From a candidate division TA06 bacterium B3_TA06 (GTDB taxonomy: Bacteria; Hydrothermota; Tepidihabitantia; B3-TA06), in NCBI GenBank assembly GCA_005223075.1, contig NJBO01000003.1, positions 81,555 through 145,554 of the forward strand: DNA of 64,000 nt, in the 5' to 3' direction. Every line of letters begins with the position of its first letter. The stretch's first letter is position 1. A program made the translations under genes and the position numbers. The notes beneath the pieces are model-generated. The model saw only the letters and a list, made by a program, of their open reading frames with translations. It had not been told where the DNA came from and searched no databases. This document shows positions 2,817 to 39,276 of the stretch, piece after piece.

Positions 2817-4739
2817 ATGACAGGCAAAAGCTCAAGGTCGGTTGACACCAAAGCGAGGGCAAGCAAGAGATCTCACGATTTTTCGGCACTCTCGCGGAGG
2901 ATACTGCAGTTCGCCAACCGCGGCGCGCCTAGGATTGAGTTCCAGCGCGAGGTCTCAAGGATGCTCATCCGCTTCTCCGGATGCGATGCGGTTGAGCTGC
3001 GCATCACCGACGGCAAGCTGCACTACCGGTGGGAAGCCAGGATGGAACCCAATGAGCGCTTTCAGTTCGAGAAACTCCCCTATATACAGGATGAGAAGGG
3101 GCTGGCGCTCCCATGCCTGCCGGATGGTTCAAGCCTGGAACAAACCTGTAAGATACTGTTAGGTGGTAACTTTGACAGCTCCTATCCTTACTTCACCAAA
3201 ACCGGCAGCTTCTGGACTGGCAACCTGAAGGAGGTGCTGAGTTCCCAAACGGGCGAGGAAACCCCTCCTGATCTGGCGTCTACCGGTGATTACTCCTCAC
3301 TCGCCATGATCCCTTTTGTAATAGACGATAACAATAACGGGCTGATTCAATTAAAAAGCAGAGAGAAGAACTTCTTTACCGTTGAAGAGATAGAGTTCTA
3401 CGAGGGCGTTGCCCAGACCATAGGGATAGCAATGGCAGGCCGCAGAGCACAGACCAAACTGCGTGAGCGCGTCAAGGAACTCTACTGCCTTTACGGGATA
3501 GCCCGACTGGTTGAGGAGCCGGGCATATCTCTTGAGAAGATCCTTCAGGGCATAGCCGATTTGTTGCCACCAGCCATGCGATACCCGGATATAGCCTCGG
3601 CTAGGATAATACTGGATGATAAGGATTACTGCTGCCCGCCGGAGTGTCACGAGACCCGCTACCGGCTGGCCGCGGATATCGTAGTCGAGGGAGTGAAACG
3701 AGGCGTGGTGGAGGTGTTCTACTCAGAGGAGAAGCCTGAGCTTGAGGTGGAGCTTTTCATCGCAGAGGAGCAGAGCCTTCTGGATGCTGTGGCCGCTCAG
3801 CTCGTGCTTATAATCGAACGCAGGCAGTGGGAAGCCGAACGGACCAAGCTTGAGGAACAGCTTCGTCACGCGGATCGCCTGGCTACTCTGGGCCAGCTTG
3901 CAGCAGGCGTGGCACACGAGCTTAACGAACCCCTGGAAGGTGTGCTTGGGTTTGCACAGCTTGCCCGCAAATCCGATGGTCTACCCAAGCAGGCAGGAAA
4001 AGATATCGAGAAGATCGAAAACGCAGCACTTCACGCCAGGGAGGTGGTAAGGAAGCTTCTCATATTCGCCCGTCAGATGCCCACCCATAAAACACTCCTC
4101 AACCTTAACCAGGTGGTGGAAGAAGGACTCTACTTCCTTGAGAGCCGCTGCGAAAAGGAGGGGATCGAGGTGGTGCGCGATCTTGCCGAGGGGCTGGCTG
4201 AGATCACCGCCGACCCGTCACAGCTGAACCAGGTGCTTATCAATCTGGTCGTAAATGGACTCCAGGCAATGTCTGGCGGAGGAAGGCTCACCATAAGAAC
4301 AAGAGCAACAGAGAAGAAGGTTATTCTGATCGTGGAGGATACGGGTGTGGGTATGGACGAGGAGGTTCAAAGACAGATATTCCTGCCCTTCTTTACCACA
4401 AAGGAGGTCGGGCAAGGAACCGGTCTTGGGTTGGCCGTGGTTCACGGGATCGTCACCTCACACGGGGGGACGATCGAGGTTGAAAGCAAGGAAGGCAAGG
4501 GATCACGCTTCACCGTAAAACTACCCCTTACCCGTACCCCTTCGGGGCATTCTCACAATTACTCGAAGCATACGCTCCGTTCAAAAGGGAATAACACCCG
4601 TAACACCCGTACCCCTTCGGGGCATTCTCACAATTACTCGGAGCATACGCTCCGTTCAAAAGGAAATAACACCCGTAACACCCGTAACACGCCTACGCGT
4701 CCTGAGGGACGCGATGAAACTAACAAGGAGACCGAATGA
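2817..4739 (+). CDS. cytoplasmic sensor histidine kinase (tandem GAF-like domains + HisKA + HATPase_c)
   Basis: H-box (LAAGVAHELNEPL), N/G boxes (NLVVNGLQAM, EDTGVGM, GTGLGLAVVHGI). No transmembrane segments are seen. The C-terminal tail is encoded by repeat DNA. The stop overlaps the start of the downstream response regulator. Confidence 0.85.
   Translation: MTGKSSRSVDTKARASKRSHDFSALSRRILQFANRGAPRIEFQREVSRMLIRFSGCDAVELRITDGKLHYRWEARMEPNERFQFEKLPYIQDEKGLALPCLPDGSSLEQTCKILLGGNFDSSYPYFTKTGSFWTGNLKEVLSSQTGEETPPDLASTGDYSSLAMIPFVIDDNNNGLIQLKSREKNFFTVEEIEFYEGVAQTIGIAMAGRRAQTKLRERVKELYCLYGIARLVEEPGISLEKILQGIADLLPPAMRYPDIASARIILDDKDYCCPPECHETRYRLAADIVVEGVKRGVVEVFYSEEKPELEVELFIAEEQSLLDAVAAQLVLIIERRQWEAERTKLEEQLRHADRLATLGQLAAGVAHELNEPLEGVLGFAQLARKSDGLPKQAGKDIEKIENAALHAREVVRKLLIFARQMPTHKTLLNLNQVVEEGLYFLESRCEKEGIEVVRDLAEGLAEITADPSQLNQVLINLVVNGLQAMSGGGRLTIRTRATEKKVILIVEDTGVGMDEEVQRQIFLPFFTTKEVGQGTGLGLAVVHGIVTSHGGTIEVESKEGKGSRFTVKLPLTRTPSGHSHNYSKHTLRSKGNNTRNTRTPSGHSHNYSEHTLRSKGNNTRNTRNTPTRPEGRDETNKETE
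4531..4700. repeat. two tandem 75-bp in-frame repeats (each with CCCCTTCGGGG hairpin) ending in ACCCGTAAC nonamer repeats; forms C-terminal tail of histidine kinase
   Basis: The period is 75 bp (4531 vs 4606). It encodes TRTPSGHSHNYS[K/E]HTLRSKGNNTRN twice, then NTRNT. Confidence 0.8.
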
Positions 4740-6073
4740 CGTCACCTGAAAGTGAACGCATCCTGATAGTAGATGACGCTGTTGATACCCTGGAGGTCCT
4801 ACAGCGTAATCTGGCATCACAGGGCTATCAGGTCTTTACCGCGCAAAACGTGCCGGAAGCCTTAAGGTTGCTTGAAGACACCCAGGTTGATCTGGTGATA
4901 ACCGATTTAAAGATGCCCGGGGCAAGTGGCCTGGATCTGGTGCGATACGTGCGGGAGAACCTTGCGGACACCGAGGTGATGATGATTACAGGATATGCCA
5001 CCGTAGAGGGTGCTGTTCAGGCGGTAAAGCAAGGGGCCGAGGAGTATCTTTCAAAGCCCTTTACCGACGAGGAGCTTTTCTTGGCGGTAAGAAAGGCGCT
5101 TGACAAACTACGTATGCGCAGGGCCGCGCAGGTATCCGAGGATATCCCGTCGCCTCATGGGATAATCGGCTCCTCAAAGGTCATGCGCGAGGTCTTCGGC
5201 GCCATCCATAAGGCGGCGTCAACCCCGGCTACGGTGCTCATCACAGGGGAAAGCGGCACTGGCAAGGAGCTTGTGGCCAGGGCTATCCACTACTCAAGCC
5301 CACGTGCCTCACCACCCTTCGTGCCTATCAACTGCGGGGCTATACCGCATGAACTCCTGGAATCGGAACTCTTCGGGTATGTTAAGGGTGCGTTTACCGG
5401 CGCGGCAACGACCAGGGCAGGTTTCTTTCAAACCGCAGACGGCGGCACCATCTTCCTTGACGAGATCAGTGAAACAAGTCCGGCCATGCAGGTTAAGCTC
5501 TTGCGGGTGCTGCAGGACAAGGAGATCTTCATGCTCGGCTCACGAAAATCCGAAAAGGTTGATGTGAGGATTATTGCCGCAACCAATAAAGACCTACAGG
5601 CCCTTGTCAAAAAGCAAAACTTCAGGGAGGACCTTTACTACCGCCTCAACGTCATTACCATTGATCTTCCACCGCTGCGGGAGAGGGATGACGACATACT
5701 CCTGATGCTGCGACATTTTACGGAAAAGTTTGCAGAGGAGCTTGGCAAACCCACACCTAGCTTCTCTGACGAAGCGCTTGAGGTTCTAAAGAACTACCAC
5801 TGGCCCGGTAACGTGCGGGAACTCGAGAACGTAACCCAACGGTTGGTGGTGATGGTGGAGGGGGATACGATAGATGTTAAGGATTTGCCGGCACTTATGC
5901 GCTTTTCTCCAAAGGCTCAGGGATTTGAAAGGACCTTGGCCGAGGTGGAGGCAGAACACATACGCAACGTGTTGGCAAGCGTTAACGGCAACAAAACCAA
6001 AGCAGCAGAGATACTCCAAATCGACCGAAAGACCTTGCGCGAAAAACTCAGGAAGATGGAAGAATCCCAGTAA
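4736..6073 (+). CDS. sigma-54-dependent response regulator (NtrC family: REC + AAA+ sigma-54 activator + Fis-type HTH)
   Basis: REC domain (D in VITDLKMPG), Walker A (GESGTGKE), GAFTGA motif present, C-terminal HTH (KTKAAEILQIDRKTLREKL). Confidence 0.9.
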   Translation: MTSPESERILIVDDAVDTLEVLQRNLASQGYQVFTAQNVPEALRLLEDTQVDLVITDLKMPGASGLDLVRYVRENLADTEVMMITGYATVEGAVQAVKQGAEEYLSKPFTDEELFLAVRKALDKLRMRRAAQVSEDIPSPHGIIGSSKVMREVFGAIHKAASTPATVLITGESGTGKELVARAIHYSSPRASPPFVPINCGAIPHELLESELFGYVKGAFTGAATTRAGFFQTADGGTIFLDEISETSPAMQVKLLRVLQDKEIFMLGSRKSEKVDVRIIAATNKDLQALVKKQNFREDLYYRLNVITIDLPPLRERDDDILLMLRHFTEKFAEELGKPTPSFSDEALEVLKNYHWPGNVRELENVTQRLVVMVEGDTIDVKDLPALMRFSPKAQGFERTLAEVEAEHIRNVLASVNGNKTKAAEILQIDRKTLREKLRKMEESQ

Positions 6074-6234
6074 GAAGGTGGGGCGTTTCTCCTCACCGGG
6101 ACACATCTCCCCGCCAATTTTAATCCAGGGGGAGACTGAAGCTGCATCCCAAAGCCCATCCATCCACTTCTAACTATTTAATCTAGCTTGACTTAACTAA
6201 GCCATCCTCATCGTAACTCACATTTAGGCTAGCC

Positions 6235-6250
6235 TGGCACGAATATTGCA
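6235..6250 (+). promoter_or_regulatory. sigma-54 (-24/-12) promoter: TGGCAC-N5-TTGCA
   Basis: An exact match (TGGCACgaataTTGCA) lies ~78 nt upstream of the ATG at 6328, which has AGGAGG as its RBS. It is immediately downstream of the sigma-54 activator gene. Confidence 0.7.
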
Positions 6251-6327
6251 AGCTAGGGGGTGAGTCGCTCACAAGGACGGCTCCTGGAAAAGCTCGTGAA
6301 AAGAAATCACACGCAAAGGAGGATTTC

Positions 6328-6630
6328 ATGCAGACATCAACAGTTCAAGAGACCAAAAAGGCTGTTAAGCCGAAGTATCGGGGGCTTTGCTCTACCTGCA
6401 AGAACGCTGCAACCTGCACCTTTCCTCGTGACCCCGCTCGTCCAATAATGCACTGCGACGAGTTCGACGGCTACGAGGGTCCAAAGACTAGGGTAGTCCC
6501 AAGGGTTGCCAAGCCAGAGGCCGCCGACGAGGTGGAGTTCAAAGGACTGTGCCGCAACTGCGAGAACCGTCATCACTGCGTCTTTCCCAAGCCTGCAGGC
6601 GGTGTTTGGCAGTGCGACGAGTATTGTTAG
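6328..6630 (+). CDS. small Cys-rich protein with internal duplication (2x C-x2-C-x4/5-C...C-D-E-F/Y); putative metal-binding, unknown function
   Basis: A strong RBS precedes the ORF. It has 8 Cys in two similar halves (CSTCKNAATCTFP...HCDEF; CRNCENRHHCVFP...QCDEYC). It is the first ORF after the sigma-54 promoter. Confidence 0.5.
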   Translation: MQTSTVQETKKAVKPKYRGLCSTCKNAATCTFPRDPARPIMHCDEFDGYEGPKTRVVPRVAKPEAADEVEFKGLCRNCENRHHCVFPKPAGGVWQCDEYC

Positions 6631-6671: not shown

Positions 6672-7934
6672 ATGAAAAAGGCGAGCGTTTACGATAACGT
6701 AACCAAGCAGTTTAACAAGGCTGCTGATTTGATGCATCTGGATCCTGAGATCCGCAAGGTACTTGCTAGAACCAACAATGAGGTAATCGTCAACTTTCCG
6801 GTTAAGATGGACGACGGCCACATCGAGATGTTCACCGGTTACCGGGTGCAGCACAACAACGTGCTTGGCCCTTACAAAGGGGGGCTGCGTTTTCACCCGG
6901 CGGTAGACATCGACGAGGTTCGCGCCCTTGCCACCTGGATGACATGGAAGTCGGCCATAGTGAACCTCCCGTTCGGTGGAGCAAAAGGCGGCATCCAGAT
7001 CGATCCATTCAAGTACTCGGCAAGCGAGCTTGAGCACATCACCCGCCGATTCACCTTTGCCCTGGGCTCGAACATAGGGCCTGAGTTCGACATCCCGGCA
7101 CCGGACGTAAACACCAACCCTCAGATAATGGCCTGGATCCTGGATACCTACCTCTCCACCATACCTGCCCACGAGCGTCAGGCGGCAGTCCATGTAGTTA
7201 CCGGCAAGCCTGTCGAGTCGGGTGGGAGCATAGGCCGCAACAAGGCTACTGGCCAGGGTGTGGTCTTTACCATCGAGCAGTGGGCCAAAGATACCAACTT
7301 TGATCTTGAGGGTGCGGCATACTTCGTTCAGGGATTCGGGAACGTGGGTTCCTGGGCGTCCCGTCTCCTCAAACCCCACGGTTCAAAGCTCGTTGCTGTC
7401 GAGGATGTAAGCGGGGCTATTGCCAATCCAAAGGGGATCGATCCCGACGACCTTTATGAGTATACGCAGAAGAATAAGGGATTGATTGGCGGCTACGCAA
7501 AGGCCAAACCTATTGATCACGAAACCTTCCTTGCGACCAAGGCCGACATCTTCATCCCGGCGGCTCTTGAGAACCAGATCACACTAAAGACCGCTCCAAT
7601 GCTTAACGTGAAGCTGGTTGCCGAAGGCGCAAACGGTCCCACCAATCCGGACGGTGATAAGATTCTTAATGAAAAGGGAACCGATCTTCTTCCAGACGTC
7701 CTTTGCAACGCGGGCGGCGTGATCGTAAGCTACTTCGAGTGGCTGCAGAACAAACGCAGCGAGTTCTGGGATCTTGAAGAGGTGGATGGAAAACTGCACC
7801 GCAAGATCGTTGCAGGCTACGAACGCGTTCGCGATACGGCTCGAGAGCACAACATAGACTGGCGAACCGCGGCCTACATCGTCGCTCTCTCACGTCTTGA
7901 AACGGTATACAAGGAACGTGGAATCTTCCCATGA
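6672..7934 (+). CDS. gdhA: glutamate dehydrogenase (Glu/Leu/Phe/Val dehydrogenase family), canonical
   Basis: PYKGGLRFHP and LPFGGAKGGI motifs intact; C-terminal NAD(P)-binding domain (VQGFGNVG). Confidence 0.9.
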   Translation: MKKASVYDNVTKQFNKAADLMHLDPEIRKVLARTNNEVIVNFPVKMDDGHIEMFTGYRVQHNNVLGPYKGGLRFHPAVDIDEVRALATWMTWKSAIVNLPFGGAKGGIQIDPFKYSASELEHITRRFTFALGSNIGPEFDIPAPDVNTNPQIMAWILDTYLSTIPAHERQAAVHVVTGKPVESGGSIGRNKATGQGVVFTIEQWAKDTNFDLEGAAYFVQGFGNVGSWASRLLKPHGSKLVAVEDVSGAIANPKGIDPDDLYEYTQKNKGLIGGYAKAKPIDHETFLATKADIFIPAALENQITLKTAPMLNVKLVAEGANGPTNPDGDKILNEKGTDLLPDVLCNAGGVIVSYFEWLQNKRSEFWDLEEVDGKLHRKIVAGYERVRDTAREHNIDWRTAAYIVALSRLETVYKERGIFP

Positions 7935-7937
7935 GCA

Positions 7938-7994
7938 GCCCCGTAACACCCGTAACACCCGTAACACCCGTAATACACGTAACACACGGTAACA
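7938..7994. repeat. (ACCCGTAAC)n nonamer tandem repeat, intergenic between the two gdh paralogs
   Basis: cccgtaac acccgtaac acccgtaac acccgtaat acacgtaac acacggtaac. Confidence 0.8.
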
Positions 7995-8008
7995 GCAAAC
8001 CGTAAGGA

Positions 8009-9277
8009 GTGATGATGAAGAAGGAAACCGGTTTCTACGGCGACGTTCTTGAGGGGCTCCATAATGCCGCGGATTTGATGAAGCTAGACTGTGAGGTTCT
8101 CAAAATCCTTACCAAGACTACCAACGAGATTACCGTCAACTTCCCGGTAAAGATGTCAAACGGTCTGGTGGAGATGTTCACTGGCTATCGTGTGCAGCAC
8201 AACAACGTGATGGGTCCCTACTCGGGCGGACTTCGCTTTCATCCCTGGGTTGATCTGGGAGAGATGCGCGCGCTTGCTACTGTGATGACGTGTAAGGCGG
8301 CTATCGCCGGTATCCCATTCGGCGGGGCTGCAGGCGGGATCCAGTTCAACCCCTCTGACTACAACTCCTCTGATGTGGAACGAATCACCCGCCGCTTTAC
8401 CTACTCACTTGGCTCGAACATCGGAGCGGAGTACGACATACTCACCTCGGACGTGAACACAAACCCCCAAACTATGGCCTGGATACTGGATACCTACCTC
8501 TCTACCATGCCTCCGGAAAAAAGGCAGGCCAAAACACACGTGGTCACCGGCAAACCCATCCACCTGGGCGGCAGCGTCGGACACGACAAAGCAGCGGGCC
8601 AGGGGCTTGTCTTTGCCATCGAGGAATGGGCAGCTGGTCACCGTTTCGATCTTGAGGGTGCTGCCTACACGGTTCAAGGATTCGGAAGTGTAGGTGTTTG
8701 GACCTCCATCTTGCTCAATCAAAAAGGAGCAAAACTCGTTGCCGTTGAGGATACCTCTGGGCCCATCCTTAACCCGGATGGAATTGATCCTGAAGACCTT
8801 TTCGCCTACGACAAGGAGAACGGACGCATAGCAGGCTACCCCAATGCAAAACCGATAGATCACGAGGCCTTCCTTGCTACAAAAGCCGATATATTCATCC
8901 CAGCCGCGTTGGAGTATCAGATCACCGCCCAGACCGCACCCAAGCTCAACGTCAAGTTGGTGGTCGAGGGAGCCGACTGCCCCTGCGATCGAGATGGCTC
9001 AAAGATCTTGAAGGAGAGGGGAATTGAGGTGCTCCCAGACATCCTGTGCAACTCCGGCGGCGTGATCGTGAGCTACTTCGAGTGGCTGCAGAACAAACGA
9101 AGCGAGCTGTGGGAACTTGAAGAGGTAGACCGCAAACTGCAGAACAAGATGAAGGACGCTTACCACCGGGTGCGCGACCGAGCAGCGGAGTTCAATACCG
9201 ACTGGTGCACCGCCGCACGCATCGAGGCACTTACCAGACTGGAGAGAATCTACAAGAGACGAGGTATCTTCCCGTAA
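8009..9277 (+). CDS. glutamate dehydrogenase-family paralog with substitutions at two conserved lysines (possible pseudo-enzyme or altered specificity)
   Basis: It aligns with the upstream GDH along its whole length. It has PYSGGLRFHP (K to S) and IPFGGAAGGI (catalytic K to A). The true start is probably the ATG at 8012 or 8015, after AAGGAG. Confidence 0.85.
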   Translation: MMMKKETGFYGDVLEGLHNAADLMKLDCEVLKILTKTTNEITVNFPVKMSNGLVEMFTGYRVQHNNVMGPYSGGLRFHPWVDLGEMRALATVMTCKAAIAGIPFGGAAGGIQFNPSDYNSSDVERITRRFTYSLGSNIGAEYDILTSDVNTNPQTMAWILDTYLSTMPPEKRQAKTHVVTGKPIHLGGSVGHDKAAGQGLVFAIEEWAAGHRFDLEGAAYTVQGFGSVGVWTSILLNQKGAKLVAVEDTSGPILNPDGIDPEDLFAYDKENGRIAGYPNAKPIDHEAFLATKADIFIPAALEYQITAQTAPKLNVKLVVEGADCPCDRDGSKILKERGIEVLPDILCNSGGVIVSYFEWLQNKRSELWELEEVDRKLQNKMKDAYHRVRDRAAEFNTDWCTAARIEALTRLERIYKRRGIFP

Positions 9278-27921: not shown

Positions 27922-30900
27922 CTATCCCTTGCAGGGATTTCCCTTTCCTTCAACGATCTCGATTTCCTCAGGGGTTAAGGCATAAAGCTTGTAGACAAGG
28001 CGGTCAATCTCGCGGTCAGTTTCGGCGATCTCAGTTACGACCGGCGTGAGTTTGTTTTTGTATTTATCAAAACCTTTTGAGAGGAGCTCGTAGTTCCTGG
28101 GTTCGCGGGTGTTGAAGGCAAGCTTGCGGTTCTTTGCGATAAGGTCGGCAAGGGCGTTGGCATCGTCAAGCTTCTCAAGGCCGCGGATGCGCTCCCTGCC
28201 CGAAAGCTCAGCGAGCTTTGCCCCTATAAGGTGCTCCAGCCAGCCGGAGTATTCTTTAACTATCTCCTGCTTGCGCTTGTGCAGGTCAAGCATAGCTTGT
28301 ACAAGCTCAACCATATCGTTGTGCATCTTCTTGTCTTCGGGCTTGGAGAAGTCGATTGTGCGGATGGGCATAGACTCTACTTCGTTTGTTCCCACGTTGT
28401 TATTCGTACTTGTGATCTTAAATCTCCACTGGAACAACTTTGAATTTAACAAACCCATTAAATAATAAAGATCGTACTCCGTCCTAACATTCAAAGTAAT
28501 GGAATTTGTAGAATCCGCAAAATAGGTCGGTGGCTTTATAATCATTGCAACGATTCGCCATTTTTCATCAACTCCCGTTATTCTTTGAGTTGCTATACGA
28601 CGCTTGAATACTTCTTCAGGAATAGAATTTCCATCCTCCAAAAATTTCTTCTCATCGAACCATTCCCTTTCACCTTGACTTAACACATCTTGGAAATAGT
28701 ATCTCCCAATTTCCACTCCTTTCAATAATCTAGACATACTGGAATCACTGGTAATGAACTTGCTATATATTGTTTGATTGATTTCTCCTCTTCTTACATC
28801 AAAAGTATCTTCTTCTGCTAATCTTACAATACCTTCGGTTAGGTACATTTTCCGACAAACCTCCCAGTTACTCTGGTCAACTAAAGGAATAGGAATATTA
28901 TTTGGATCGAGCAATACCAAATCATCAAATTTGATTAAAGCCTCACGACATTCATCTTCAAAGCTGTTTCCAGGAAACACCCGGATATGAATTTGAGTCA
29001 TTTTGGGTGATTGAGGTTCGTTCATACAAGTAACAATCGTTGTGGACAGTTTTGCATCCTTAAAAATTCTCCGTTTAGAATTATCTTTTTGCGGGAAACA
29101 ATCTGCTAATAATTCGCAGGTTGAAAGCATCAAATTACGTCGCGCTTTTGAGCAACTTATATCTGCAACCAAAGATAAAGGCACAATCATACCAAATCGA
29201 TCCCCTCGTTGTAAAAGCCCTAATGCTCTTACAATAAATAATCGGTACAGATTAAGCTTACCACCTAGCGCTGCCTCGTACAGAGGGATATTCTTTACAT
29301 AATCACCCAATTCTTTATGGGGGCTAGAGATTCCTTTCCTTTCCTTCTCAAGAACGTCATACGGCGGATTCCCTATCACCGCGTCGAAGCCGGGATTGGC
29401 AAGCGGCCTGCCGTGCTTATCGAAAAACACTTCTGGAAACTCAAGCTCCCAGTGGAAAAAGTGATGCTTGTTCCAGAGCTTAGTTGCTTTATCCACCCAC
29501 TTTTCGCGCTCCAGCGCGGCAAATGCCTTTTTATCGTCTTGCCTCAGCGCTTCCACAAGCCGCGAGTAGTCCTTCGGCTTGACCTCGTTCCCGAAGTAGG
29601 TGGAGACCCAGACGTCGGCGGCCTGGCGAAAAGGTTTCATCATCCCCCGCGCCTGCTTGAGCCGCTTTATCTTGTCATCTATCTGGTCAATGGTATCCGA
29701 AGGCTCGTCCTCAATTTGCTTATAATAGACTATCGTGCGTGCCGAGTAGTGTTCAACTATCTGCTGAAACAGCGAGCCGGTTTTCTCGCCCGGCAGGTTG
29801 CCAAGCTCTGCAACCTTTGCGCCGATAAGCGAATCTCCAGGACGCAGGTGATGGTCAAGGAAGGAAAGCGGCTTGTTCGCGGCCACGGTTGAAAGCCACA
29901 AGGAAAGCTTGGCAAGCTCCACAGCAAGCGGGTTCTTATCCACCCCGAAGATGCAGCGCTCTATAATCAAACGCTTTGCCTTGCCGATCTCGTCCTCCGT
30001 TTCCTCAATCTCCTTAACTCCCAGAAGCTTGGGGGCAAGGAAATCGGTTGCCTCAACCAGAAAGTGTCCCGAACCCATTGCCGGGTCGAGCACACGGAGC
30101 GAAAGGAGTTCCTTCTCTTTAATGTCCTTGGTCAGCGGTTCAAGGGTGTGCTCGACAATGTATTTCACGATGTAGTCCGGCGTGTAGTAAGAGCCTGTGG
30201 CCTTGCGGTCGCCCCGCTCTGTCACGGGGTAGTATTCCCCTTTCCCTACGCTGTCCGTAGTTTTGCTTATCTCCTCTTCTTTGCGTTCCCGCAAGGGCTT
30301 CCATTGCTCTTTCTTTCCCTTTTTTACCGCGACCATCGGCTCAGAGGCAACCTCAAGATGATTTTCTAAAAGCCCCTCGTATATGCTCCCAAGGTCCCTG
30401 ATTTTCAAGCTCGAATAGTCAATGAACTCCTTTTTTGGCGTAGTCTTTGTCTGGGGTCTGGATAAAAGGTCAATAACCTCGGCAAGCCAGCGGTCGCCTA
30501 TTTTGTACTTCTTGAGGAACTCGTGCTGATTGTCATCGAAGAGACCACCGTTATAAGGGGCAATACCCAGGTCTTTTTCCCCCTGGTCTATAAGTGTTGA
30601 AAGGGCAGATAGTTTGCCCCACAGCATAGGTATGCTGCCGCCGTAAGGCGGCCCGTCCTTCCTTGCGTATATCTCCTCCTTCATACTCTCCAGGCTGTAG
30701 TGTTGAAGGTAGCTTCTGTTAGAGATTGGCAGGAGCAACTTATCTTCGGCGTAGAGTATAAACAAGAGACGGTAGAGAAGAACAAAGCAGTTTTCGCGTA
30801 TAAGCTCCTTGTCGCGCACAGGCTCCAAGCGGTTTTCTTTAAACTCCACGAATCCCTGAGCGAGTATTCGAAGCGCCTTGTAAACGTTGTCCTTAAGCTC

Positions 30901-31647
30901 CGCGCCGACGGCTTCAGCGTAACGGACTGAGCCGTCAAGCACGTAGTCGAGAAATCGCGGGAATGCTTGACAGCGAAAGAACATGTAGAAATACTTAAAG
31001 GCTTCAAGTTGTTCATCACGGCTTACGCCTGCTGCAAAGAGGGGCCCGTCGGAGTTTATTAGGCTTACAAGATTAACCTCGTAGTAGCGGTCAAGGTGTT
31101 TGCTTTGTTCCCGCTCATACAAACGCCAGATTCGCCCGTTAGTGAGTATGCCCCAACGTACCTCGCTATAGAGAAGATACAGGTGCATTTGGTAGGCAGG
31201 GTTGCGGTACTCGAAATCAAACAGGTCGGGCTCGTAACGCGATGAAAGGTCTAATTTGCGATTCCAATGCTTGGCTTCGCAAAGACCTATTGCTTTGTTG
31301 AAAAGCTCCCATTCCTTGCCCTTTTCCGTAGAGGCTTTCTTTTTTGCAGATTCCGTGTCGAATAACGCATAATCGGGCCTTCTGATGCCTTCGGCGGTTT
31401 TCTCTCGCGGTTGAACAATGTAATGGTGACCGAGTATTTCGAGTATGGGCCTGATGAAGTCGTTTTCCAGTTGAGGTTCGCTTAAAGCGGGGAGTCTCGT
31501 TAAATTCTCCTTATAGAGCTTGGAGATACCTTCAAAGGCTTCTTCAATCCCTTCGTGATCCCGCCATTCTCTTTCTTCTGGTAGTATTTCTTCAAGGTAG
31601 TGGTTTGAGAAGAGGTCTTGATTGGTGTGTAAAGAATTGGTACCCAT
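27922..31647 (-). CDS. type IIG/IIL restriction-modification enzyme (fused PD-(D/E)xK nuclease + N6-adenine methyltransferase + target-recognition domain)
   Basis: The N-terminus has a PD...E-x-K motif (RRPDYALFD...GLCEAKHW). MTase motif I is VLDPAMGSGHFL and motif IV is GNPPYD. A C-terminal region of about 450 aa is the likely target-recognition domain. Confidence 0.8.
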   Translation of the reverse strand: MGTNSLHTNQDLFSNHYLEEILPEEREWRDHEGIEEAFEGISKLYKENLTRLPALSEPQLENDFIRPILEILGHHYIVQPREKTAEGIRRPDYALFDTESAKKKASTEKGKEWELFNKAIGLCEAKHWNRKLDLSSRYEPDLFDFEYRNPAYQMHLYLLYSEVRWGILTNGRIWRLYEREQSKHLDRYYEVNLVSLINSDGPLFAAGVSRDEQLEAFKYFYMFFRCQAFPRFLDYVLDGSVRYAEAVGAELKDNVYKALRILAQGFVEFKENRLEPVRDKELIRENCFVLLYRLLFILYAEDKLLLPISNRSYLQHYSLESMKEEIYARKDGPPYGGSIPMLWGKLSALSTLIDQGEKDLGIAPYNGGLFDDNQHEFLKKYKIGDRWLAEVIDLLSRPQTKTTPKKEFIDYSSLKIRDLGSIYEGLLENHLEVASEPMVAVKKGKKEQWKPLRERKEEEISKTTDSVGKGEYYPVTERGDRKATGSYYTPDYIVKYIVEHTLEPLTKDIKEKELLSLRVLDPAMGSGHFLVEATDFLAPKLLGVKEIEETEDEIGKAKRLIIERCIFGVDKNPLAVELAKLSLWLSTVAANKPLSFLDHHLRPGDSLIGAKVAELGNLPGEKTGSLFQQIVEHYSARTIVYYKQIEDEPSDTIDQIDDKIKRLKQARGMMKPFRQAADVWVSTYFGNEVKPKDYSRLVEALRQDDKKAFAALEREKWVDKATKLWNKHHFFHWELEFPEVFFDKHGRPLANPGFDAVIGNPPYDVLEKERKGISSPHKELGDYVKNIPLYEAALGGKLNLYRLFIVRALGLLQRGDRFGMIVPLSLVADISCSKARRNLMLSTCELLADCFPQKDNSKRRIFKDAKLSTTIVTCMNEPQSPKMTQIHIRVFPGNSFEDECREALIKFDDLVLLDPNNIPIPLVDQSNWEVCRKMYLTEGIVRLAEEDTFDVRRGEINQTIYSKFITSDSSMSRLLKGVEIGRYYFQDVLSQGEREWFDEKKFLEDGNSIPEEVFKRRIATQRITGVDEKWRIVAMIIKPPTYFADSTNSITLNVRTEYDLYYLMGLLNSKLFQWRFKITSTNNNVGTNEVESMPIRTIDFSKPEDKKMHNDMVELVQAMLDLHKRKQEIVKEYSGWLEHLIGAKLAELSGRERIRGLEKLDDANALADLIAKNRKLAFNTREPRNYELLSKGFDKYKNKLTPVVTEIAETDREIDRLVYKLYALTPEEIEIVEGKGNPCKG

Positions 31648-32246: not shown

Positions 32247-33578
32247 TTGCGTGGAAGGGGGCTTGACACGAAGGAAATAGGGACTATTCTTATATCAACA
32301 ATGGGAATTCAAATGAATAAAAGACAAATTTTTTTCATCATCGCGATAGCCGTTGGCATATTGTTGCTGATTCTCCTTGCGAAGAAAATGGGAACGGTTA
32401 CGGATCAGCCTGTACTGCGAAGGAAATCGAGACACAAAAGGACACGTGAGGAAAGAGAGATAGGGCGATTAAACGTTAAGTCCCTTGACATCCGGGCAGG
32501 TGCGGATAGAATACCCGTAGACGTGGGCATCTACCGTAGGGAAAACGGGATGCTCTACGTGCGTGTAATGATTGACGGAAAGCTTATCCGCCGGTCTCTG
32601 GAGACTCGAAAAGAGTCTGAGGCTCTATTGAAAATCCGGAGTGTAATTATGGCTGCCTTGGAAGGTCAAAAAGCAAAGGAAGTCCCGACGCTTGCAGAGT
32701 TCACTAAGACCTATCTAGCCTACAGTAAACGCCAGTACTCAAAAAGCACCTATGCAAGGAACCTTTGCAGGATGTCGAAGCTCATAGAGAACTTTGGCTC
32801 TATGAGGCTTGACCAGATAGACAAGCGGGCGATTAAACTCCACTCTCAGAAACGTCTGCAGGAAGTGTCCCCAGCATCGGTGAACTGTGAACGGTCGTTG
32901 CTAAGCTCCATAATGGAGTATGCCTGTGAGCTTGACTTCATTCAAGAGAATCCTGTCAGGAAAGTAAAGAAGCTTAGGGAATCCCCAGGCCGAGAACGCT
33001 ATCTGACCCCAGACGAAATCAAACGGCTCCTTGACGCCTGCAAGGCGCTAAGCGAACGGAAAGGCGTTGGACACAACCCAATCCTGTATGAGATTGTCTT
33101 AACCGCTATCCTCACCGGCTTACGTAAAGGTAATCTACAGAACCTGAAGTGGAGTCAAGTGGATTTTAAGACAGGGAATATCATTATCCCCGCCGGTGAA
33201 CACAAAAACCGCAAGCCGCTCTACTTCCCGATTAACCCCTACTTGCAGGAGATATTGTCAGGACTAAGGCATAACTACCCTTACGCTGAATACGTCTTCT
33301 GCAAGGCTGACGGCACTGAATATGGAGATTGGAAAAGGAGCTTTAACACCGCGTGCGAAACAGCCGGTTTAGAGGACGTTCGCTTCCACGACTTAAGGCA
33401 TACATGTGGAACCCTTCTGAACATGCTGGGTACGAACCAATATACTATCCGTGCGCTTATGGGACACCGCACATTAGCTGCGTCCAAGCGATACGTCCAC
33501 ACCCCGCCTGAAACAGTCAGAGAAGCGTCTAACGCTTTAGGAGACCGCCTGAGACGTATCCTAGACGGCAGCGACTAA
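32247..33578 (+). CDS. int: tyrosine-type site-specific integrase
   Basis: Catalytic motifs HDLRHTCGT, LMGHRTLAASKRYVH. The annotated N-terminus has a hydrophobic segment, so the true start may be an internal Met around 32388. Confidence 0.85.
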   Translation: MRGRGLDTKEIGTILISTMGIQMNKRQIFFIIAIAVGILLLILLAKKMGTVTDQPVLRRKSRHKRTREEREIGRLNVKSLDIRAGADRIPVDVGIYRRENGMLYVRVMIDGKLIRRSLETRKESEALLKIRSVIMAALEGQKAKEVPTLAEFTKTYLAYSKRQYSKSTYARNLCRMSKLIENFGSMRLDQIDKRAIKLHSQKRLQEVSPASVNCERSLLSSIMEYACELDFIQENPVRKVKKLRESPGRERYLTPDEIKRLLDACKALSERKGVGHNPILYEIVLTAILTGLRKGNLQNLKWSQVDFKTGNIIIPAGEHKNRKPLYFPINPYLQEILSGLRHNYPYAEYVFCKADGTEYGDWKRSFNTACETAGLEDVRFHDLRHTCGTLLNMLGTNQYTIRALMGHRTLAASKRYVHTPPETVREASNALGDRLRRILDGSD

Positions 33579-34575: not shown

Positions 34576-34698
34576 CTGAACGTCTCTCGGAGGCTCCAGT
34601 CTCCGAGAGGCTTCAGAAGACGAGGGCCGAAGGCCCGAGTCTTAACTAAGATTGGATAATTTGAAAAGATATTGCCACTGCCCAGAAAGGAGGGTATC

Positions 34699-37600
34699 GT
34701 GAAAGTTCTTGCTTTGCTTGCCACCTTAACGGGAGGGCTTTTTGCCCACCCCTACATTCACCTCTCAACCTCCCGGATATACTCACCCGGGGAGGAAACA
34801 GAGATCCGACTGGAAACCAGAGACTTGGACGTAATCCACTTCCGATTGTACGCAATCGAGGACCCGATAGATTTCTTCGAAGCTCAGAAGAACATGCGCT
34901 CGCCCAGGGTGCGGGGCAAGGCCAAGCCTGTCAACTTCTTCCACATGCTGGAAGGCCTTGGCGATAGAACCAAGCGCAACACCCGCTATCTTGCCCGCGA
35001 GATGATGAGTAAGGAAAGCCGCATAGGGTTAAGGGATTATCTCGGTCTTCCACCGCTCGAGAAGAAGGAGGCCGAAACACCCGAACGCTTCGGGCCATCG
35101 AGTATCCCAAGGCTTGAGGGATACGAGGTGCTTCGGGAGTGGTCTATGGGGTTCGAGAAAAAGAAGAAGGATAAGGACGACTATTACTACTACGGTCGCT
35201 ATCATTACGAGACCATAGACCTTGAGATCACCAAGCCTGGCGTCTACCTTGTTGAGGCCTACTACGGGACGCGCGTTGCCTACACCCCTGTGGTAGTTTC
35301 AGAGATGTCTGTGGTAACCAAGCAAGACCCTCGGGAGGTATACGTCTTCGCAGTGAACGCAGAAGACGGCAAGCCTCGCCGAGGGGCAGTGGTGGTGGTG
35401 CTTTCGGACACCAACCGGATAGCCACCGGCCGCACCGACGGCAAGGGACTCTTCCATACCTCCTTCGACACCACCCGGTTAAGGGTGCTGGTCCAGGACG
35501 GCGATAACTTCGCGCTCCTGGATAAGTACTACTACTATTCCGATGAGAAGGATCAGGACGGGGCAATAAAGGTCTATCTGCACACCGAACGACCCATCTA
35601 CCGGCCTGAGCAGACCGTCTACTTCAAGGGAGTAGTCCGGCGGATGCGCCGCGGCACCTACCGTACCCCTGCAGGCGATGAGGTCGAGGTGGTGGTGACA
35701 GATCCAGAGGGCAACGAGATCTACCGACACACCCTCGCCAGTGACTCCTGGGGTGCGTTTGCGGACTCGTTGATAGTGCCCTCATCATCACGTCTGGGAA
35801 GATATACGTTAAGCGCCACCCTGGAGGAAACTTACCACTCGGTTCAGTTCCGGGTGGAGGAGTACCGCAAGCCCTCCTACAAGGTGGAGGTTGAGCTAGA
35901 CGCCGAGCAGTACGTGCAGGGCGATACGGTAAAGATCGAGGTGGCGGCCGACTACTTCTTCGGCGCTCCGGTTGCCAAGGCGGAGACCAAGCTGAAGATA
36001 TACCGACGCGAGCACCATCGCTACTACTGGTACGGCACCTCCTACATGGACGAGCTTGCCGGCAAGACCGACTCGCAGGGCCGCATCACCTTCACCTACG
36101 TCACACCCAAGAAGGACCGCAACTACCGCTACACCTTCGAGGCGCAGGTGCGGGACGAATCCCGTCGTGCTGAATCCGGTGAGGCCTCGGCGTTCGTGGC
36201 CTCCTCCGCGGTGCTGGTTGACCTGAAACCCACCCGCTACGTGGTGGAGCCTGGCGAGAAGCTTGAGATCGACATTCACACCCACGATATCCTCAATAAA
36301 CCTGTTCCCGGCACGGTCGAGATAGTAGTTTACCGGCATTACTGGGACAAGGAGGACAAGGTCCTCGCCCGCAGAACCATGTCCGTGGGCAAGATAGGAT
36401 TCACCACCTTCACCTTCACCCCCAGCCAAGCAGGCCCCTACTATGTTATAGCGAAGGCCAAGGACAAGCAAGGCAACCAGAGCGAGGAGAAACGCTGGTT
36501 CTACTCCTCCGAGCGCGGCGGCTACTACACCTGGAAAACCGACAGAATCCAGATCATCTTCGATGCAGAAACCTACGAGGTGGGTGACTGGGCCGAGGCG
36601 CTGGTGATAACCCCTTACGAGAACGCCAGCATAATCGCATCACTTGAGGCGGACAATCTGTACGACGTTGACATAATCGAACTTGAGGGGAACACCGCGA
36701 TGCTGCGCTTCAAGGTTCGCTCCGAGTTCGTGCCTAACGTGTTCCTTTCGGTGTGCGGGATTTATGAAGGGGAGTTCTTCGAACACAAGGAGAAGATGCT
36801 CGTGAACCGCAAAGCAAGGATGCTCACGGTGGAGCTTGTCCCTGAGAGACAGCGCTACGAGCCGGGCGAGCGGGCCAAGTTGAACGTGCTGGTCAAGGAC
36901 GTCCGTGGCAAACCCATCAAGGCGGATATCTCTCTTGCCGTGGTGGACGAGGCGCTCTACTCGCTTGCCGCAGAGATCGCACCATCAATCGAGGACTACT
37001 TCTACGGCGAGCGTGCCGATCAGGTTGCCACCTCTTCCTCTGTATACTACTCATTCTACGGCTACGAGCGGCAATATCAGATGCTTTCTGCCGCGGCAGC
37101 GGACAGCGTGGTGCTTGCCGCCTACAAGGGACGCGAAGAACCGAAGGTGCGCAAGAAGTTCAAGGACGTGGCATACTGGAACGCGTTTGTGAGAACAGAC
37201 GGCTCTGGCCGCGCACAGGTTGAGTTAATCTGGCCAGATAACCTAACCACCTGGCGAGCCACTGCACGCGCAATCAGCATGGACACCAAGGTTGGCGAGT
37301 CGCGAGAAAAGATCTTGGTGACCAAGGACCTTCTGGTTCGCATCATCCCGCCCAGGTTCGTAACCGAGCGAGACAGCCTTCTCATACCCACCATCGTCCA
37401 CAACTACACGCGCACATCCCAGGAGGTCAAGCTCTCCTTCTCGGTCAAAGGGTTAAAACTTTTCGACAACACCGCCCATACTGACACCATCCAGCCAGGC
37501 AGCACCTTCCGTGTGGACTGGCCGGTAAGATGCGAGGTGCCGGGTGACGTCACCCTTACCGCCAAGGCCATCGGCAGCAGTGCCTCCGACGCGATGGAGC

Positions 37601-39276
37601 TTACCATCCCGGCCAACCCTCACGGGATAGAGCGCAACCTCGTGATCTCGGCGTTCATGCCCAAGCCTGACCAAGGCATCTCCCGCACCTTCAGTATACC
37701 CGAGGAGGCCGAGCTGCGAACCATCACTGGCAAGCTGACACTTACCCCTACACTGAGCTCAGCACTCTTTGCAGGGCTCTCCTACCTTGCGAAATATCCA
37801 TACGGATGCGTGGAGCAGACCATGTCGTGCTTCTTCCCGGATCTTGTGGTCGCCGACCTCATCCGGGATCCCAAGCGCGGAGACCCGCAGCTTGCCGCCG
37901 AGCTGCCCAAGATGATAGCCAAGGGCCTTGCCAAGCTCTACGGCTACCAGCACTCAGACGGCGGCTGGGGATGGTTCGAGCACGACGAGACCATGCACTT
38001 CAACACCACCTACGTGATGCACGGGCTACTGTATGCCACCCAGCTTGGTTACGATGTGAACCCAACCGTGATAAGAAGAGGCTTGGAAGCCATCAACAGG
38101 ATGCTGCGCAAGGATAAAGACGTCGCCACCACCGACCGCGCCTACATGCTCTACGCTCTCTCTATGGCGCCCGACCAGGACAAAGAGTTCATAAAAGCCC
38201 AGCTTGCCGCCCTTGAGAAGACCCAACTCGACCCCTACTCGCAGGCGTTTATGGCGCTTTCCTACCACGAGATCGGTGAGGACCCCAAGGCGCGCCAGAC
38301 GCTCGAGCGTCTCAAGCAAGAGGCGATAGCAGACGAGGAGATGGTCTACTGGAGCGGCAGGGTTCACATTTTTGCGCGCTGGCAGGATGACCCGGTTGAG
38401 ATTACAGCTACGACCCTGCGGGCATTTCTTGCCATCTACCCCAGCGATGGGATGATCCCCAAGATCATATACTGGCTCCTGCGCGAGCGGCGTGGTAACC
38501 ACTGGAAATCCTCGAAGGATTCCGCCCTGGCACTCCTGGCTTTAGCCGAGTTCTTCAAAACCACCAAGGACACCAGCCCTCGGATGGAGATCGAGTTCCT
38601 GCTCAACAACCGCAGGATCGCAAGCTACAAGATCTCGCAGTACGAGATCTTACAGTTCAACCGTCCACTGGATCTCGAACTATCAGGTGTGGTGCACGGG
38701 GAAAACTCACTCAAGATTCAGAAGAAGGGCTCGGGTAACCTGTTCACGAGCCTGGTCTTTTCATACTACAGCAAGGAGGAGGGTATCACGGCAGGCGGAA
38801 CCGAGCTCAAGATCCAGCGTGAGTACTACCGGTTGATCCCGCGCGTGGAGAAAGACAGACTGGTCTACGACAAGAAGAGGCTCTCCGGACCGGTCAAGGT
38901 GGGAGAGCCTTTATTCGTGAAGCTCTATGTGGACTGCACGGAGAACTTCGAGTACGTGATGATTCAGGACCCGATCCCTGCCGGCTTCGAGGTGGCAAAG
39001 GACAACTCGCGCTACCCCATCTCGGGCGAGCGATACTGGTGGGGCTACTACGACTATGAGAGCTGGGGCTACATGTACTCCGGGCGCGAGATCCACGACG
39101 ACCACACCGCACTCTTCATAAGCCGACTGTGGGGAGGCAGGCGAGAGCTATCCTACGTCATCGAACCCTACGTTCCAGGGGTTTACCACACCATGCCCGC
39201 AGTGGTATCGCTCATGTACTTCCCGGATAAACGCGGGCACTCATCAGAAGCCGTAATCACCGTGATCGAGGAGTGA
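34699..39276 (+). CDS. bacterial alpha-2-macroglobulin (YfaS/ECAM-like) with thioester motif CVEQ
   Basis: The protein is about 1525 aa with a signal peptide. The thioester region is YPYGCVEQTMS (compare CLEQ in E. coli ECAM). The likely start is the GTG at 34699, after AAGGAGG. Confidence 0.85.
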   Translation: MKVLALLATLTGGLFAHPYIHLSTSRIYSPGEETEIRLETRDLDVIHFRLYAIEDPIDFFEAQKNMRSPRVRGKAKPVNFFHMLEGLGDRTKRNTRYLAREMMSKESRIGLRDYLGLPPLEKKEAETPERFGPSSIPRLEGYEVLREWSMGFEKKKKDKDDYYYYGRYHYETIDLEITKPGVYLVEAYYGTRVAYTPVVVSEMSVVTKQDPREVYVFAVNAEDGKPRRGAVVVVLSDTNRIATGRTDGKGLFHTSFDTTRLRVLVQDGDNFALLDKYYYYSDEKDQDGAIKVYLHTERPIYRPEQTVYFKGVVRRMRRGTYRTPAGDEVEVVVTDPEGNEIYRHTLASDSWGAFADSLIVPSSSRLGRYTLSATLEETYHSVQFRVEEYRKPSYKVEVELDAEQYVQGDTVKIEVAADYFFGAPVAKAETKLKIYRREHHRYYWYGTSYMDELAGKTDSQGRITFTYVTPKKDRNYRYTFEAQVRDESRRAESGEASAFVASSAVLVDLKPTRYVVEPGEKLEIDIHTHDILNKPVPGTVEIVVYRHYWDKEDKVLARRTMSVGKIGFTTFTFTPSQAGPYYVIAKAKDKQGNQSEEKRWFYSSERGGYYTWKTDRIQIIFDAETYEVGDWAEALVITPYENASIIASLEADNLYDVDIIELEGNTAMLRFKVRSEFVPNVFLSVCGIYEGEFFEHKEKMLVNRKARMLTVELVPERQRYEPGERAKLNVLVKDVRGKPIKADISLAVVDEALYSLAAEIAPSIEDYFYGERADQVATSSSVYYSFYGYERQYQMLSAAAADSVVLAAYKGREEPKVRKKFKDVAYWNAFVRTDGSGRAQVELIWPDNLTTWRATARAISMDTKVGESREKILVTKDLLVRIIPPRFVTERDSLLIPTIVHNYTRTSQEVKLSFSVKGLKLFDNTAHTDTIQPGSTFRVDWPVRCEVPGDVTLTAKAIGSSASDAMELTIPANPHGIERNLVISAFMPKPDQGISRTFSIPEEAELRTITGKLTLTPTLSSALFAGLSYLAKYPYGCVEQTMSCFFPDLVVADLIRDPKRGDPQLAAELPKMIAKGLAKLYGYQHSDGGWGWFEHDETMHFNTTYVMHGLLYATQLGYDVNPTVIRRGLEAINRMLRKDKDVATTDRAYMLYALSMAPDQDKEFIKAQLAALEKTQLDPYSQAFMALSYHEIGEDPKARQTLERLKQEAIADEEMVYWSGRVHIFARWQDDPVEITATTLRAFLAIYPSDGMIPKIIYWLLRERRGNHWKSSKDSALALLALAEFFKTTKDTSPRMEIEFLLNNRRIASYKISQYEILQFNRPLDLELSGVVHGENSLKIQKKGSGNLFTSLVFSYYSKEEGITAGGTELKIQREYYRLIPRVEKDRLVYDKKRLSGPVKVGEPLFVKLYVDCTENFEYVMIQDPIPAGFEVAKDNSRYPISGERYWWGYYDYESWGYMYSGREIHDDHTALFISRLWGGRRELSYVIEPYVPGVYHTMPAVVSLMYFPDKRGHSSEAVITVIEE

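Follow-up and report, generated by a model that had tools for sequence, protein, structure and literature searches.

A large unnamed family of small twin-Cys4 proteins encoded with sigma-54 activators and genes of glutamate metabolism

Accessory third components of two-component systems include PII, which works with NtrB/NtrC, ZraP with ZraSR and CpxP with CpxAR; ZraP, which binds metal, and CpxP are themselves members of the regulons concerned and feed back on the kinase. Among the systems built on sigma-54 activators, PspA acts on PspF and HycA on FhlA, both as feedback regulators encoded by a first cistron. The control of glutamate dehydrogenase (GDH) and glutamate synthase (GOGAT) lies where the metabolism of carbon meets that of nitrogen and is accounted for in model bacteria by PII/NtrBC, GltC/RocG, TnrA and similar systems. 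The subject of the present analysis is a 100-residue Cys-rich open reading frame (ORF) in a stretch of 64,000 nucleotides, hereafter the window, from the candidate division TA06 bacterium B3_TA06 (contig NJBO01000003.1, forward-strand positions 81,555 to 145,554). This ORF is a real gene of a large unnamed protein family, termed here twin-Cys4 for the two four-cysteine modules of its product. The family itself is new; the kind to which it would belong, small Cys4 metal-binding accessories that share a transcript with the genes they serve, is a known one. As judged from its sequence, the most likely properties of the protein are metal binding and a role as accessory or regulatory partner.

The encoded protein, MQTSTVQETKKAVKPKYRGLCSTCKNAATCTFPRDPARPIMHCDEFDGYEGPKTRVVPRVAKPEAADEVEFKGLCRNCENRHHCVFPKPAGGVWQCDEYC, contains nine cysteines, eight of which (C21, C24, C30, C43, C75, C78, C84 and C96) belong to the motifs and are invariant in 29 and in 150 homologs, the ninth, C100, not being conserved. 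The gene is under purifying selection, with a ratio of nonsynonymous to synonymous substitution (dN/dS) of ~0.18 against a homolog at 83% identity and of ~0.11 against one at 76%. The AAGGAG of its ribosome-binding site (RBS) is kept in relatives in an alignment of the intergenic region. Because the protein has no hydrophobic segment (maximum 19-residue Kyte-Doolittle hydropathy -0.06) it is cytoplasmic. A preliminary description of this DNA, made from the sequence alone, had already recognized a gene with a strong RBS and no signal peptide, both of which hold, the latter extending to the absence of any transmembrane segment; its total of eight cysteines falls one short and is correct for the conserved motif positions.

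The family is both widespread and without annotation. A word-indexed search returned 28 close homologs, every one of them labelled 'hypothetical' and without Pfam domains, and an exhaustive profile search of 1.84 billion representatives returned 1,911 clusters (50% identity) at E <= 1e-3, with 1,196 of these at E <= 1e-10. An indexed search with a 150-sequence profile matched 1,565 proteins, and no Pfam domain or meaningful name is attached to any of the 120 listed. One homolog has been named automatically after AccD, presumably from the N-terminal zinc ribbon of AccD. In the species genomes of GTDB, 500 stretches encode a relative of the twin-Cys4 protein, and the concern raised in the preliminary description, that homologs might be missing from other genomes and the ORF spurious, is disposed of by these numbers. 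The best 80 of the 500 stretches come from Stahlbacteria/WOR-3, Zixibacteria, Pirellulales, Phycisphaerae, Sedimentisphaerales, Brocadiaceae, Ignavibacteria, Thermodesulfobacteriota/Syntrophaceae, Verrucomicrobiota, Acidobacteriota, Cloacimonadota, Spirochaetota, KSB1, TA06 and Coatesbacteria. All 80 hosts are uncultured, 79 being represented by metagenome-assembled genomes (MAGs) and one by a single-cell genome. A Candidatus Stahlbacteria (WOR-3 lineage) MAG (contig SOJW01000020, locus L009) is 99% identical to the window at the twin-Cys4 gene. The single protein has no significant match in Pfam or NCBIfam, and only chance-level matches came from a Pfam scan of 150 members and from PDB sequences, whether these were queried with the protein itself, with the full profile or with the profile of one module; the marginal matches at this level were to RseC, NifU, PerR, transferrin, Fur and eL43. 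In the literature on sigma-54, GDH and small Cys-rich proteins, on NuoE/NuoF glutamate synthase and on electron-bifurcating glutamate synthase, neither the protein nor the cassette to which it belongs was found described.

The two halves of the protein, residues ~17-47 and ~71-100, can be aligned with each other, and profiles of the two modules built from 35 homologs match with an HHalign probability of 98.7% (E = 4.6e-16), which bears out the internal duplication noted earlier. Module 1 has the family consensus YxGLCSTCxxAxxCTFPRxxxRPVxxCEEF and the pattern C-x2-C-x5-C-x12-C-[DE]-E-F, the spacing of which is held in 222 of 224 two-module members; module 2 has the consensus GLCxNCExRxTCTFPKPEGGVWHCEEY and the pattern C-x2-C-x5-C-x11-C-[DE]-E-Y, held in 223 of the 224. 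The gap between the second and third cysteines, previously given as four or five residues, is therefore five in both halves. The linker between the modules varies from 27 to 41 residues across the family, and the window protein stops one residue past module 2. The eight cysteines, G73 and G92 are the invariant columns among 150 diverse members, and G19, L20, E45, L74, W94 and E98 are at least 90% conserved. On this basis the family can be defined by a first module GLC-x2-C-x5-C-x-[FY]-P-[RK]-x8-C-[DE]-E-F and a second, GLC-x2-C-x5-C-x-F-P-K-x2-GGVW-x-C-[DE]-E-Y, at the C-terminus; the window protein has both modules, all invariant residues and a C-terminal module 2. The N-terminal tails of the family are basic (median pI, the isoelectric point, 9.5) and rich in Lys, Pro and Ala, and in three-module members they are H1-like, as in MAGKTSTPGKVKTGSPKETKAPAQPAPKAPAKRKR. 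The whole protein has a median pI of 6.6 in the family and a pI of 8.4 in the window.

ORFs were called in all loci retrieved (individual loci are cited by L numbers) and neighbouring genes were classified by BLAST against reference proteins. The order found is nearly invariant: a sensor kinase, an NtrC-type activator, a -24/-12 promoter, the twin-Cys4 gene and then either GDH or a cluster of NuoE/NuoF-GltD/ferredoxin-like/GltB-like genes. The activator lies directly upstream of the twin-Cys4 gene in 61 of 68 loci with enough upstream flank and ~2.3 kb upstream in one more (L037); seven activator-positive loci were rescued by tblastn, L037 and six with the gene directly upstream. Where tblastn was used to check the loci, activators from different phyla show 59-74% identity to that of the window, and the GltB-like protein, in the loci checked, is 79-88% identical to the L003 reference. 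With identities this high, the cassette is unusually well conserved.

The promoter element of the window lies 79 nucleotides upstream of the ATG and does not vary when the intergenic region, diverged in other respects, is aligned with that of three relatives. In the family at large, 57 of 78 GTDB loci have GGYAY-N5-YTGC upstream of their first Cys gene, where 0.03 would be expected per 450 nucleotides, and the strict -24/-12 form precedes 44 of 90 small genes. Between the twin-Cys4 gene and the two GDH genes of the window no plus-strand sigma-70-like promoter and no terminator-like site was seen, and positions 6060-6335 gave no inverted-repeat enhancer site. The promoter and the uninterrupted run into the GDH genes support, at the level of sequence, the earlier placing of this gene at the head of a sigma-54 GDH operon.

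Orthologs of the kinase are encoded two genes upstream of the twin-Cys4 gene in most related loci. The window kinase has no transmembrane segment (maximum 19-residue hydropathy 1.37) and is cytoplasmic. Its second sensor domain carries the motif LRERxKELxCLYxIA, with one invariant Cys in 57 related loci, as well as further conserved LLPxAxxYP, RG..E..Y and FLxEE positions, and has no Pfam match; in short Planctomycetota kinases of ~383 residues it is the only sensor domain. The C-terminus of the kinase ORF (4650-4739) forms an internally repeated tail, TPSGHSHNYSKHTLRSKGNNTRNTR followed by TPSGHSHNYSEHTLRSKGNNTRNTR, which mirrors a direct repeat in the DNA; this repeat either closely precedes the activator gene start or overlaps it.

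Downstream, GDH or glutamate-synthase-like genes adjoin the twin-Cys4 gene in all 68 loci that offer at least 1.5 kb of flank. Only GDH follows in 26 of these, the NuoE-like/NuoF(-GltD)/Fer2_4-Fer4/GltB-like cluster in 34 and both in three, and the five apparent exceptions were all resolved: L026 encodes a 1022-residue GDH of the Bac_GDH type, the GDH of L063 and L081 lies on the opposite strand, and the NuoE/NuoF genes of L058 and L086 had been missed by the crude gene caller. Homologs do adjoin gdh, a point that the preliminary description had put forward for checking, yet the association is broader and takes in the Bac_GDH-type GDH and the GltB-like clusters. Some genomes carry more than one copy, either as two genes each leading a transcription unit in the order activator, Cys, GDH, Cys, NuoE-like (L003, L005 and L014) or in tandem (L047, L052 and L083), and three-module proteins occur in Coatesbacteria. 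For the second small gene of L003 no -24/-12 element can be recognised, and its transcription may be joint with that of the upstream GDH. A motif, AAAGGCAAG(G), which may be an RBS-like or regulatory element, recurs at both small Cys genes of this locus, either immediately upstream or within the 5' end (L003 1884-1895, 3838-3850 and 3940-3952).

The two GDH genes of the window are paralogs, and in the second the PROSITE active-site Lys is replaced, making its product probably a non-catalytic or regulatory subunit. The same asymmetry recurs in all 17 loci whose tandem GDH pairs have a readable motif in both copies, with Lys in copy 1 and A, Y, S, N or M in copy 2, and from their sequences these tandem GDHs look like a conserved pair of catalytic and non-catalytic subunits. 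The 74-nucleotide spacer between the two genes (7935-8008) holds a ~9-nucleotide tandem repeat, CCCGTAACA, in three exact copies followed by degenerate ones.

The alternative downstream cluster is glutamate-synthase-like and apparently uncharacterised (L003 4389-10981, with equivalents in ~40 loci such as L014, L036, L038, L045 and L090-L092). It consists of a NuoE-like [2Fe-2S] protein that carries an additional, Cys-rich domain in its middle, a NuoF (616 or ~1057 residues), fused or not to a GltD-like flavoprotein, a 225-residue Fer2_4/Fer4 protein and a 527-535-residue protein with the Glu_synthase flavin mononucleotide domain only; no glutamine-amidotransferase gene was seen beside it. In cassettes of the Desulfobacterales type the GltB-like gene is directly followed by one for a protein with the EIIA-man domain (PF03610) of the sugar phosphotransferase system (L091 8201-8686 and L092 5735-6199). 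EIIA-type proteins often accompany sigma-54 systems, and this gene is a possible further regulatory link to the cassette.

Table 1. Features of the twin-Cys4 locus, in window coordinates
Feature	Position	Strand	Basis or remark
Sensor histidine kinase	2817-4739	+	N-terminal GAF-like region, second sensor domain at residues ~215-336, HisKA, HATPase_c (Pfam)
NtrC-type response regulator/sigma-54 activator	4736-6073	+	Response_reg, Sigma54_activat, HTH_8 (domain content of orthologs)
Sigma-54 -24/-12 promoter element TGGCACgaataTTGC	6235-6249	+	Only perfect TGGCAC-N5-TTGC in the window
Ribosome-binding site AAGGAGGA	6316-6323	+	5 nucleotides before the ATG; read from the sequence
Twin-Cys4 protein gene	6328-6630	+	ATG start, 100 residues; homologs, invariant Cys, dN/dS
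Module 1 (residues 17-46), YRGLC-x2-C-x5-C-TFPR-x8-C-DEF	6376-6465	+	Family alignment; HHalign against module 2
Module 2 (residues 71-99), FKGLC-x2-C-x5-C-VFPKPAGGVWQ-C-DEY	6538-6624	+	Family alignment; HHalign
GDH 1, ELFV family, active-site motif PFGGAKGG intact	6672-7934	+	Pfam; motif survey
GDH 2, paralog 66.6% identical to GDH 1, PFGGAAGG	8009-9277	+	Pfam; motif survey

The twin-Cys4 protein does not follow the type of enzyme encoded beside it. The 55-residue core of the window protein, which is GDH-linked, shows 80% identity to the copies in L003 and L014, which are GOGAT-linked, and average-linkage clustering places 59 of 79 cores in a single cluster (35 GOGAT-linked and 21 GDH-linked). 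Nearest neighbours agree in enzyme type in 67 of 74 cases, a concordance that is confounded by taxonomy. A division into GDH-linked and GOGAT-linked subfamilies was accordingly rejected, as neither the within-genome paralogs nor the clustering shows a split. The independence of the core from enzyme type argues for a partner or ligand common to all cassettes rather than for an enzyme-specific interface.

The modules also occur as parts of other proteins. The NuoE-like subunit, composed of a thioredoxin-like [2Fe-2S] domain and an uncharacterised Cys-rich middle domain, is found in three forms: without a module (278-283 residues), with a type-1 module at the N-terminus (L035, L043, L047 and L057) and with a type-2 module at the C-terminus (L003-L006 and L014). 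Each module is therefore autonomous and able to work attached to the NuoE-like subunit. In a second type of fusion, the 266-residue metagenomic protein P0117 joins an N-terminal domain homologous to residues 215-336 of the kinase (pairwise E = 4e-6) to both modules, and P0041 has a weaker, partial version of this architecture; the genes of both lie just downstream of a GltB-like gene.

The presence of two homologous Cys4 modules makes metal binding a reasonable expectation, and Zn and Fe-S appear about equally likely. The spacing C-x2-C-x5-C occurs in FNR, SPASM domains and iron-staple nucleases, and it is described as a [4Fe-4S] ligand motif in WhiB-like regulators and in MutY/Endo III-type glycosylases. 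This motif speaks in favour of Fe-S, as do the Fe-S-rich partner enzymes and weak, sub-threshold matches to Whib (PF02467) in nine of 150 members (best E 0.0015; the window protein gave none). In favour of Zn, zinc knuckles and ribbons have the size of the ~28-residue module, and the strand GGVWxC bears a chance-level likeness to eL43 in the second half of its zinc ribbon (E 0.57-0.74). Rubredoxins and zinc ribbons have two CxxC knuckles per site, and each module here has one CxxC, then C-[DE]-E-[FY]; Zn_ribbon_LapB is weakly matched by three of 150 members. The ferredoxin signature CxxCxxCxxxCP is absent, and Fer4 occurs neither among the matches of the window protein nor among the 25 commonest families matched by the 150 members. 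The spacing is thus unlike that of ferredoxin or rubredoxin, as first described, and neither family was matched. An AlphaFold2 model from 150 sequences reached a predicted local distance difference test score (pLDDT) of 70, with the modules at 72-80, and a predicted template modelling score of 0.31; per module, the only elements predicted are a short helix that follows the first Cys and a single beta-bridge.

The data confine the protein to an accessory role within the cassette. The reading preferred here, held tentatively and with somewhat less than even confidence, is that it is a metal-binding accessory, co-induced with the enzymes, which feeds back on the kinase/activator pair. The cassette comprises a soluble kinase, an NtrC-type activator, a -24/-12 promoter, the twin-Cys4 protein and enzymes interconverting 2-oxoglutarate plus ammonium and glutamate. 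Each ~28-residue module would ligate one metal centre, Zn(Cys)4 or an Fe-S cluster, through its four invariant cysteines. Since the activated transcript begins with its gene, the protein would accumulate together with the enzymes. It would work through contact with the proteins of the regulatory pair, the cytoplasmic sensor domain of the kinase being the likeliest site, and the outcome would be a feedback that responds to redox or metal state. Modules of this kind are tethered directly to the NuoE-like subunit in some lineages. The sequences show that the gene is real and establish its modules, their conservation, the synteny, the promoter and the fusions; the binding of metal, the partners in contact and the feedback are what we infer. 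Five lines of argument, namely the first-cistron position behind the kinase/activator pair and its promoter, the constancy of the protein whatever the type of enzyme, the fusion with the kinase sensor, the cytoplasmic location common to protein and kinase and the precedents among known systems, may favour a regulatory role, though we would not put it at an even chance.

Several observations weigh against this reading. Six loci (L042, L052, L058, L077, L083 and L090) have the small gene beside the enzymes and no kinase or activator within the available flank of up to 7 kb. The NuoE-like fusions are more simply read as an enzyme-bound cofactor domain, and the kinase-domain fusion is a hint given by one clear metagenomic protein on a 2.5-kb contig and one weak case. 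A stoichiometric feedback regulator would not usually occur as tandem paralogs or in three-module versions, as this protein does. Finally, the structural comparison suggested in the preliminary description yielded a model but no match to a known fold when searched with Foldseek against the PDB and BFVD.

The alternative that survives best, although on balance unlikely, is an enzyme-bound redox module or electron carrier, in which the modules would hold Fe-S clusters and the protein would be a dissociable, ferredoxin-like subunit of the NuoE/NuoF(-GltD)/GltB-like complex, with a related redox-coupling or activity-modulating role on a GDH1/GDH2 hetero-oligomer in the GDH-only operons. Consistent with such a module are the fusions, in at least nine loci, to one end or the other of the NuoE-like subunit, the adjacency of GDH or GOGAT-like genes in every one of the 68 loci, the joining of the small gene, NuoE-like and GDH within one operon in L082 and the loci that lack an adjacent two-component system. 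A C-x2-C-x5-C motif typical of [4Fe-4S] sites, eight cysteines in two pseudo-repeats that recall 2x[4Fe-4S] ferredoxins and a partner complex rich in Fe-S point the same way. However, GDH alone follows in 26 of the 68 loci, with both types in three more, though GDHs of the ELFV and Bac_GDH types use nicotinamide adenine dinucleotide (phosphate) directly, and we know of no need on their part for an Fe-S partner. The lack of enzyme-type-specific subfamilies also argues against it, as does the absence of the ferredoxin signature and of a Fer4 match; basic, disordered N-terminal tails are atypical of ferredoxins, and a module of ~28 residues is small for burying a cubane cluster alone.

A bridging role, with modules docking on both enzyme and kinase, would reconcile the two types of fusion. 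A specific and rather more doubtful form of this idea is that the protein might be an as yet unrecognised third component of an NtrBC-like sigma-54 system that spans many phyla, a redox- or O2-sensitive Fe-S protein docking on the kinase sensor domain and on the NuoE-like subunit. If true, it would report the redox state of the cell or enzyme to the control of glutamate/2-oxoglutarate genes, a PII-like role carried out by a wholly different chemistry.

It is improbable that the protein is a nucleic-acid-binding zinc finger in which degenerate ribbons or knuckles, together with the basic tail, bind the DNA of the sigma-54 promoter or enhancer or the operon mRNA and so tune expression. The basic and, in three-module members, H1-like tails would suit such a function, and so would the first-cistron position behind its own promoter, the weak resemblance of module size and GGVWxC strand to the eL43 ribbon (E about 0.6) and the single homolog named after AccD; against these stand a whole protein that is not strongly basic, as its pI values indicate, the acidic module ends ([DE]-E-[FY]), the lack of a significant match to zinc-finger families and the fusion of modules to a NuoE-like redox subunit, which would make little sense. 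That the ORF is spurious or non-functional, or a mere leader peptide for translational coupling, has in its favour only small size and missing annotation, and it was rejected as next to impossible on the conservation of the cysteines in 150 homologs and the dN/dS of 0.11-0.18, together with hundreds of homologs over many phyla, the conserved RBS and the re-use of the modules as domains within other proteins.

Elsewhere in the window, a classical GOGAT was considered as the true partner and rejected, the 1534-residue ORF concerned being a bacterial alpha-2-macroglobulin and not GltB; the alpha-2-macroglobulin gene (34672-39276, plus strand) is followed by one for a transpeptidase-domain protein. 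An Eco57I/MmeI-type restriction-modification fusion enzyme (27922-31647, minus strand) is encoded beside a phage-type integrase (32247-33578, plus strand), a pair that points to a possible mobile island.

The cassette is highly conserved across phyla, in the small-protein core (~65-80% identity) as well as in the activator (59-74%), and its hosts, besides the groups named above, include Planctomycetota, Eremiobacterota and others. The unannotated twin-Cys4 protein is a constant member of it. A family definition would name ~1,900 clusters of 'hypothetical proteins' and attach a testable role to them, and it could show by what means lineages that are mostly uncultured and largely anaerobic link their nitrogen and glutamate metabolism to redox or metal status. 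These loci also expose an uncharacterised NuoEF-type glutamate-synthase-like complex and the conserved pairing of a catalytic GDH with a Lys-less one.

Comparison with described systems places the proposed metal-binding accessory among several partial likenesses. WhiB-like proteins are likewise small (~80-120 residues), cytoplasmic Cys4 proteins with C-x2-C-x5-C and a nearby G-V-W turn, and are regulators acting by protein-protein contact with the transcription machinery. Their order, Cys-Xn-Cys-X2-Cys-X5-Cys followed by a G[VI]WGG turn and binding a [4Fe-4S] cluster, is not that of the twin-Cys4 protein, in which the fourth Cys lies downstream rather than upstream, GGVW stands between the third and fourth Cys, and the module is duplicated; WhiB-like proteins are found in Actinobacteria and their phages, whereas the twin-Cys4 family ranges over WOR-3/Stahlbacteria, Zixibacteria, Planctomycetota, Ignavibacteria, Thermodesulfobacteriota and others. 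Clostridial 2x[4Fe-4S] ferredoxins share with it eight cysteines in two pseudo-repeats (~27 residues), small size, solubility and co-occurrence with NuoEF-type Fe-S flavoenzymes; the twin-Cys4 protein differs in having no CxxCxxCxxxCP and in repeats split by a variable linker of 27-41 residues, and cross-ligation of the ferredoxin kind is unlikely because each repeat also occurs alone as a domain.

With PspA/PspF and HycA/FhlA the locus shares, in the scheme proposed here, the design of a small first-gene protein in an operon switched on by its own activator. This likeness is positional only, as the twin-Cys4 protein, a predicted Cys4 metal binder, has no sequence or domain similarity to HycA or to PspA, which is a coiled coil (neither HycA_repressor nor PspA_IM30 of Pfam is matched by the window protein or by the 150 members). 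The resemblance to PII/NtrBC lies in an NtrBC-like kinase and a sigma-54 activator set over genes of nitrogen or glutamate assimilation, together with a small accessory protein; PII, however, senses 2-oxoglutarate and ATP through its T-loops and not through Cys-bound metal. ZraP and CpxP are periplasmic whereas the twin-Cys4 protein is cytoplasmic, and there is no homology to any of the three.

The hetero-oligomeric GDH of Thermus thermophilus is reported to combine a regulatory GdhA with a catalytic GdhB (Tomita et al. 2010, as cited in PMC12364357). Like GDH1/GDH2, these are tandem paralogs of which one is apparently non-catalytic, a likeness that concerns the GDH pair and not the Cys protein. 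No Cys4 protein is, to our knowledge, part of the Thermus system, which nevertheless provides a precedent for accessory polypeptides that modulate a bacterial GDH.

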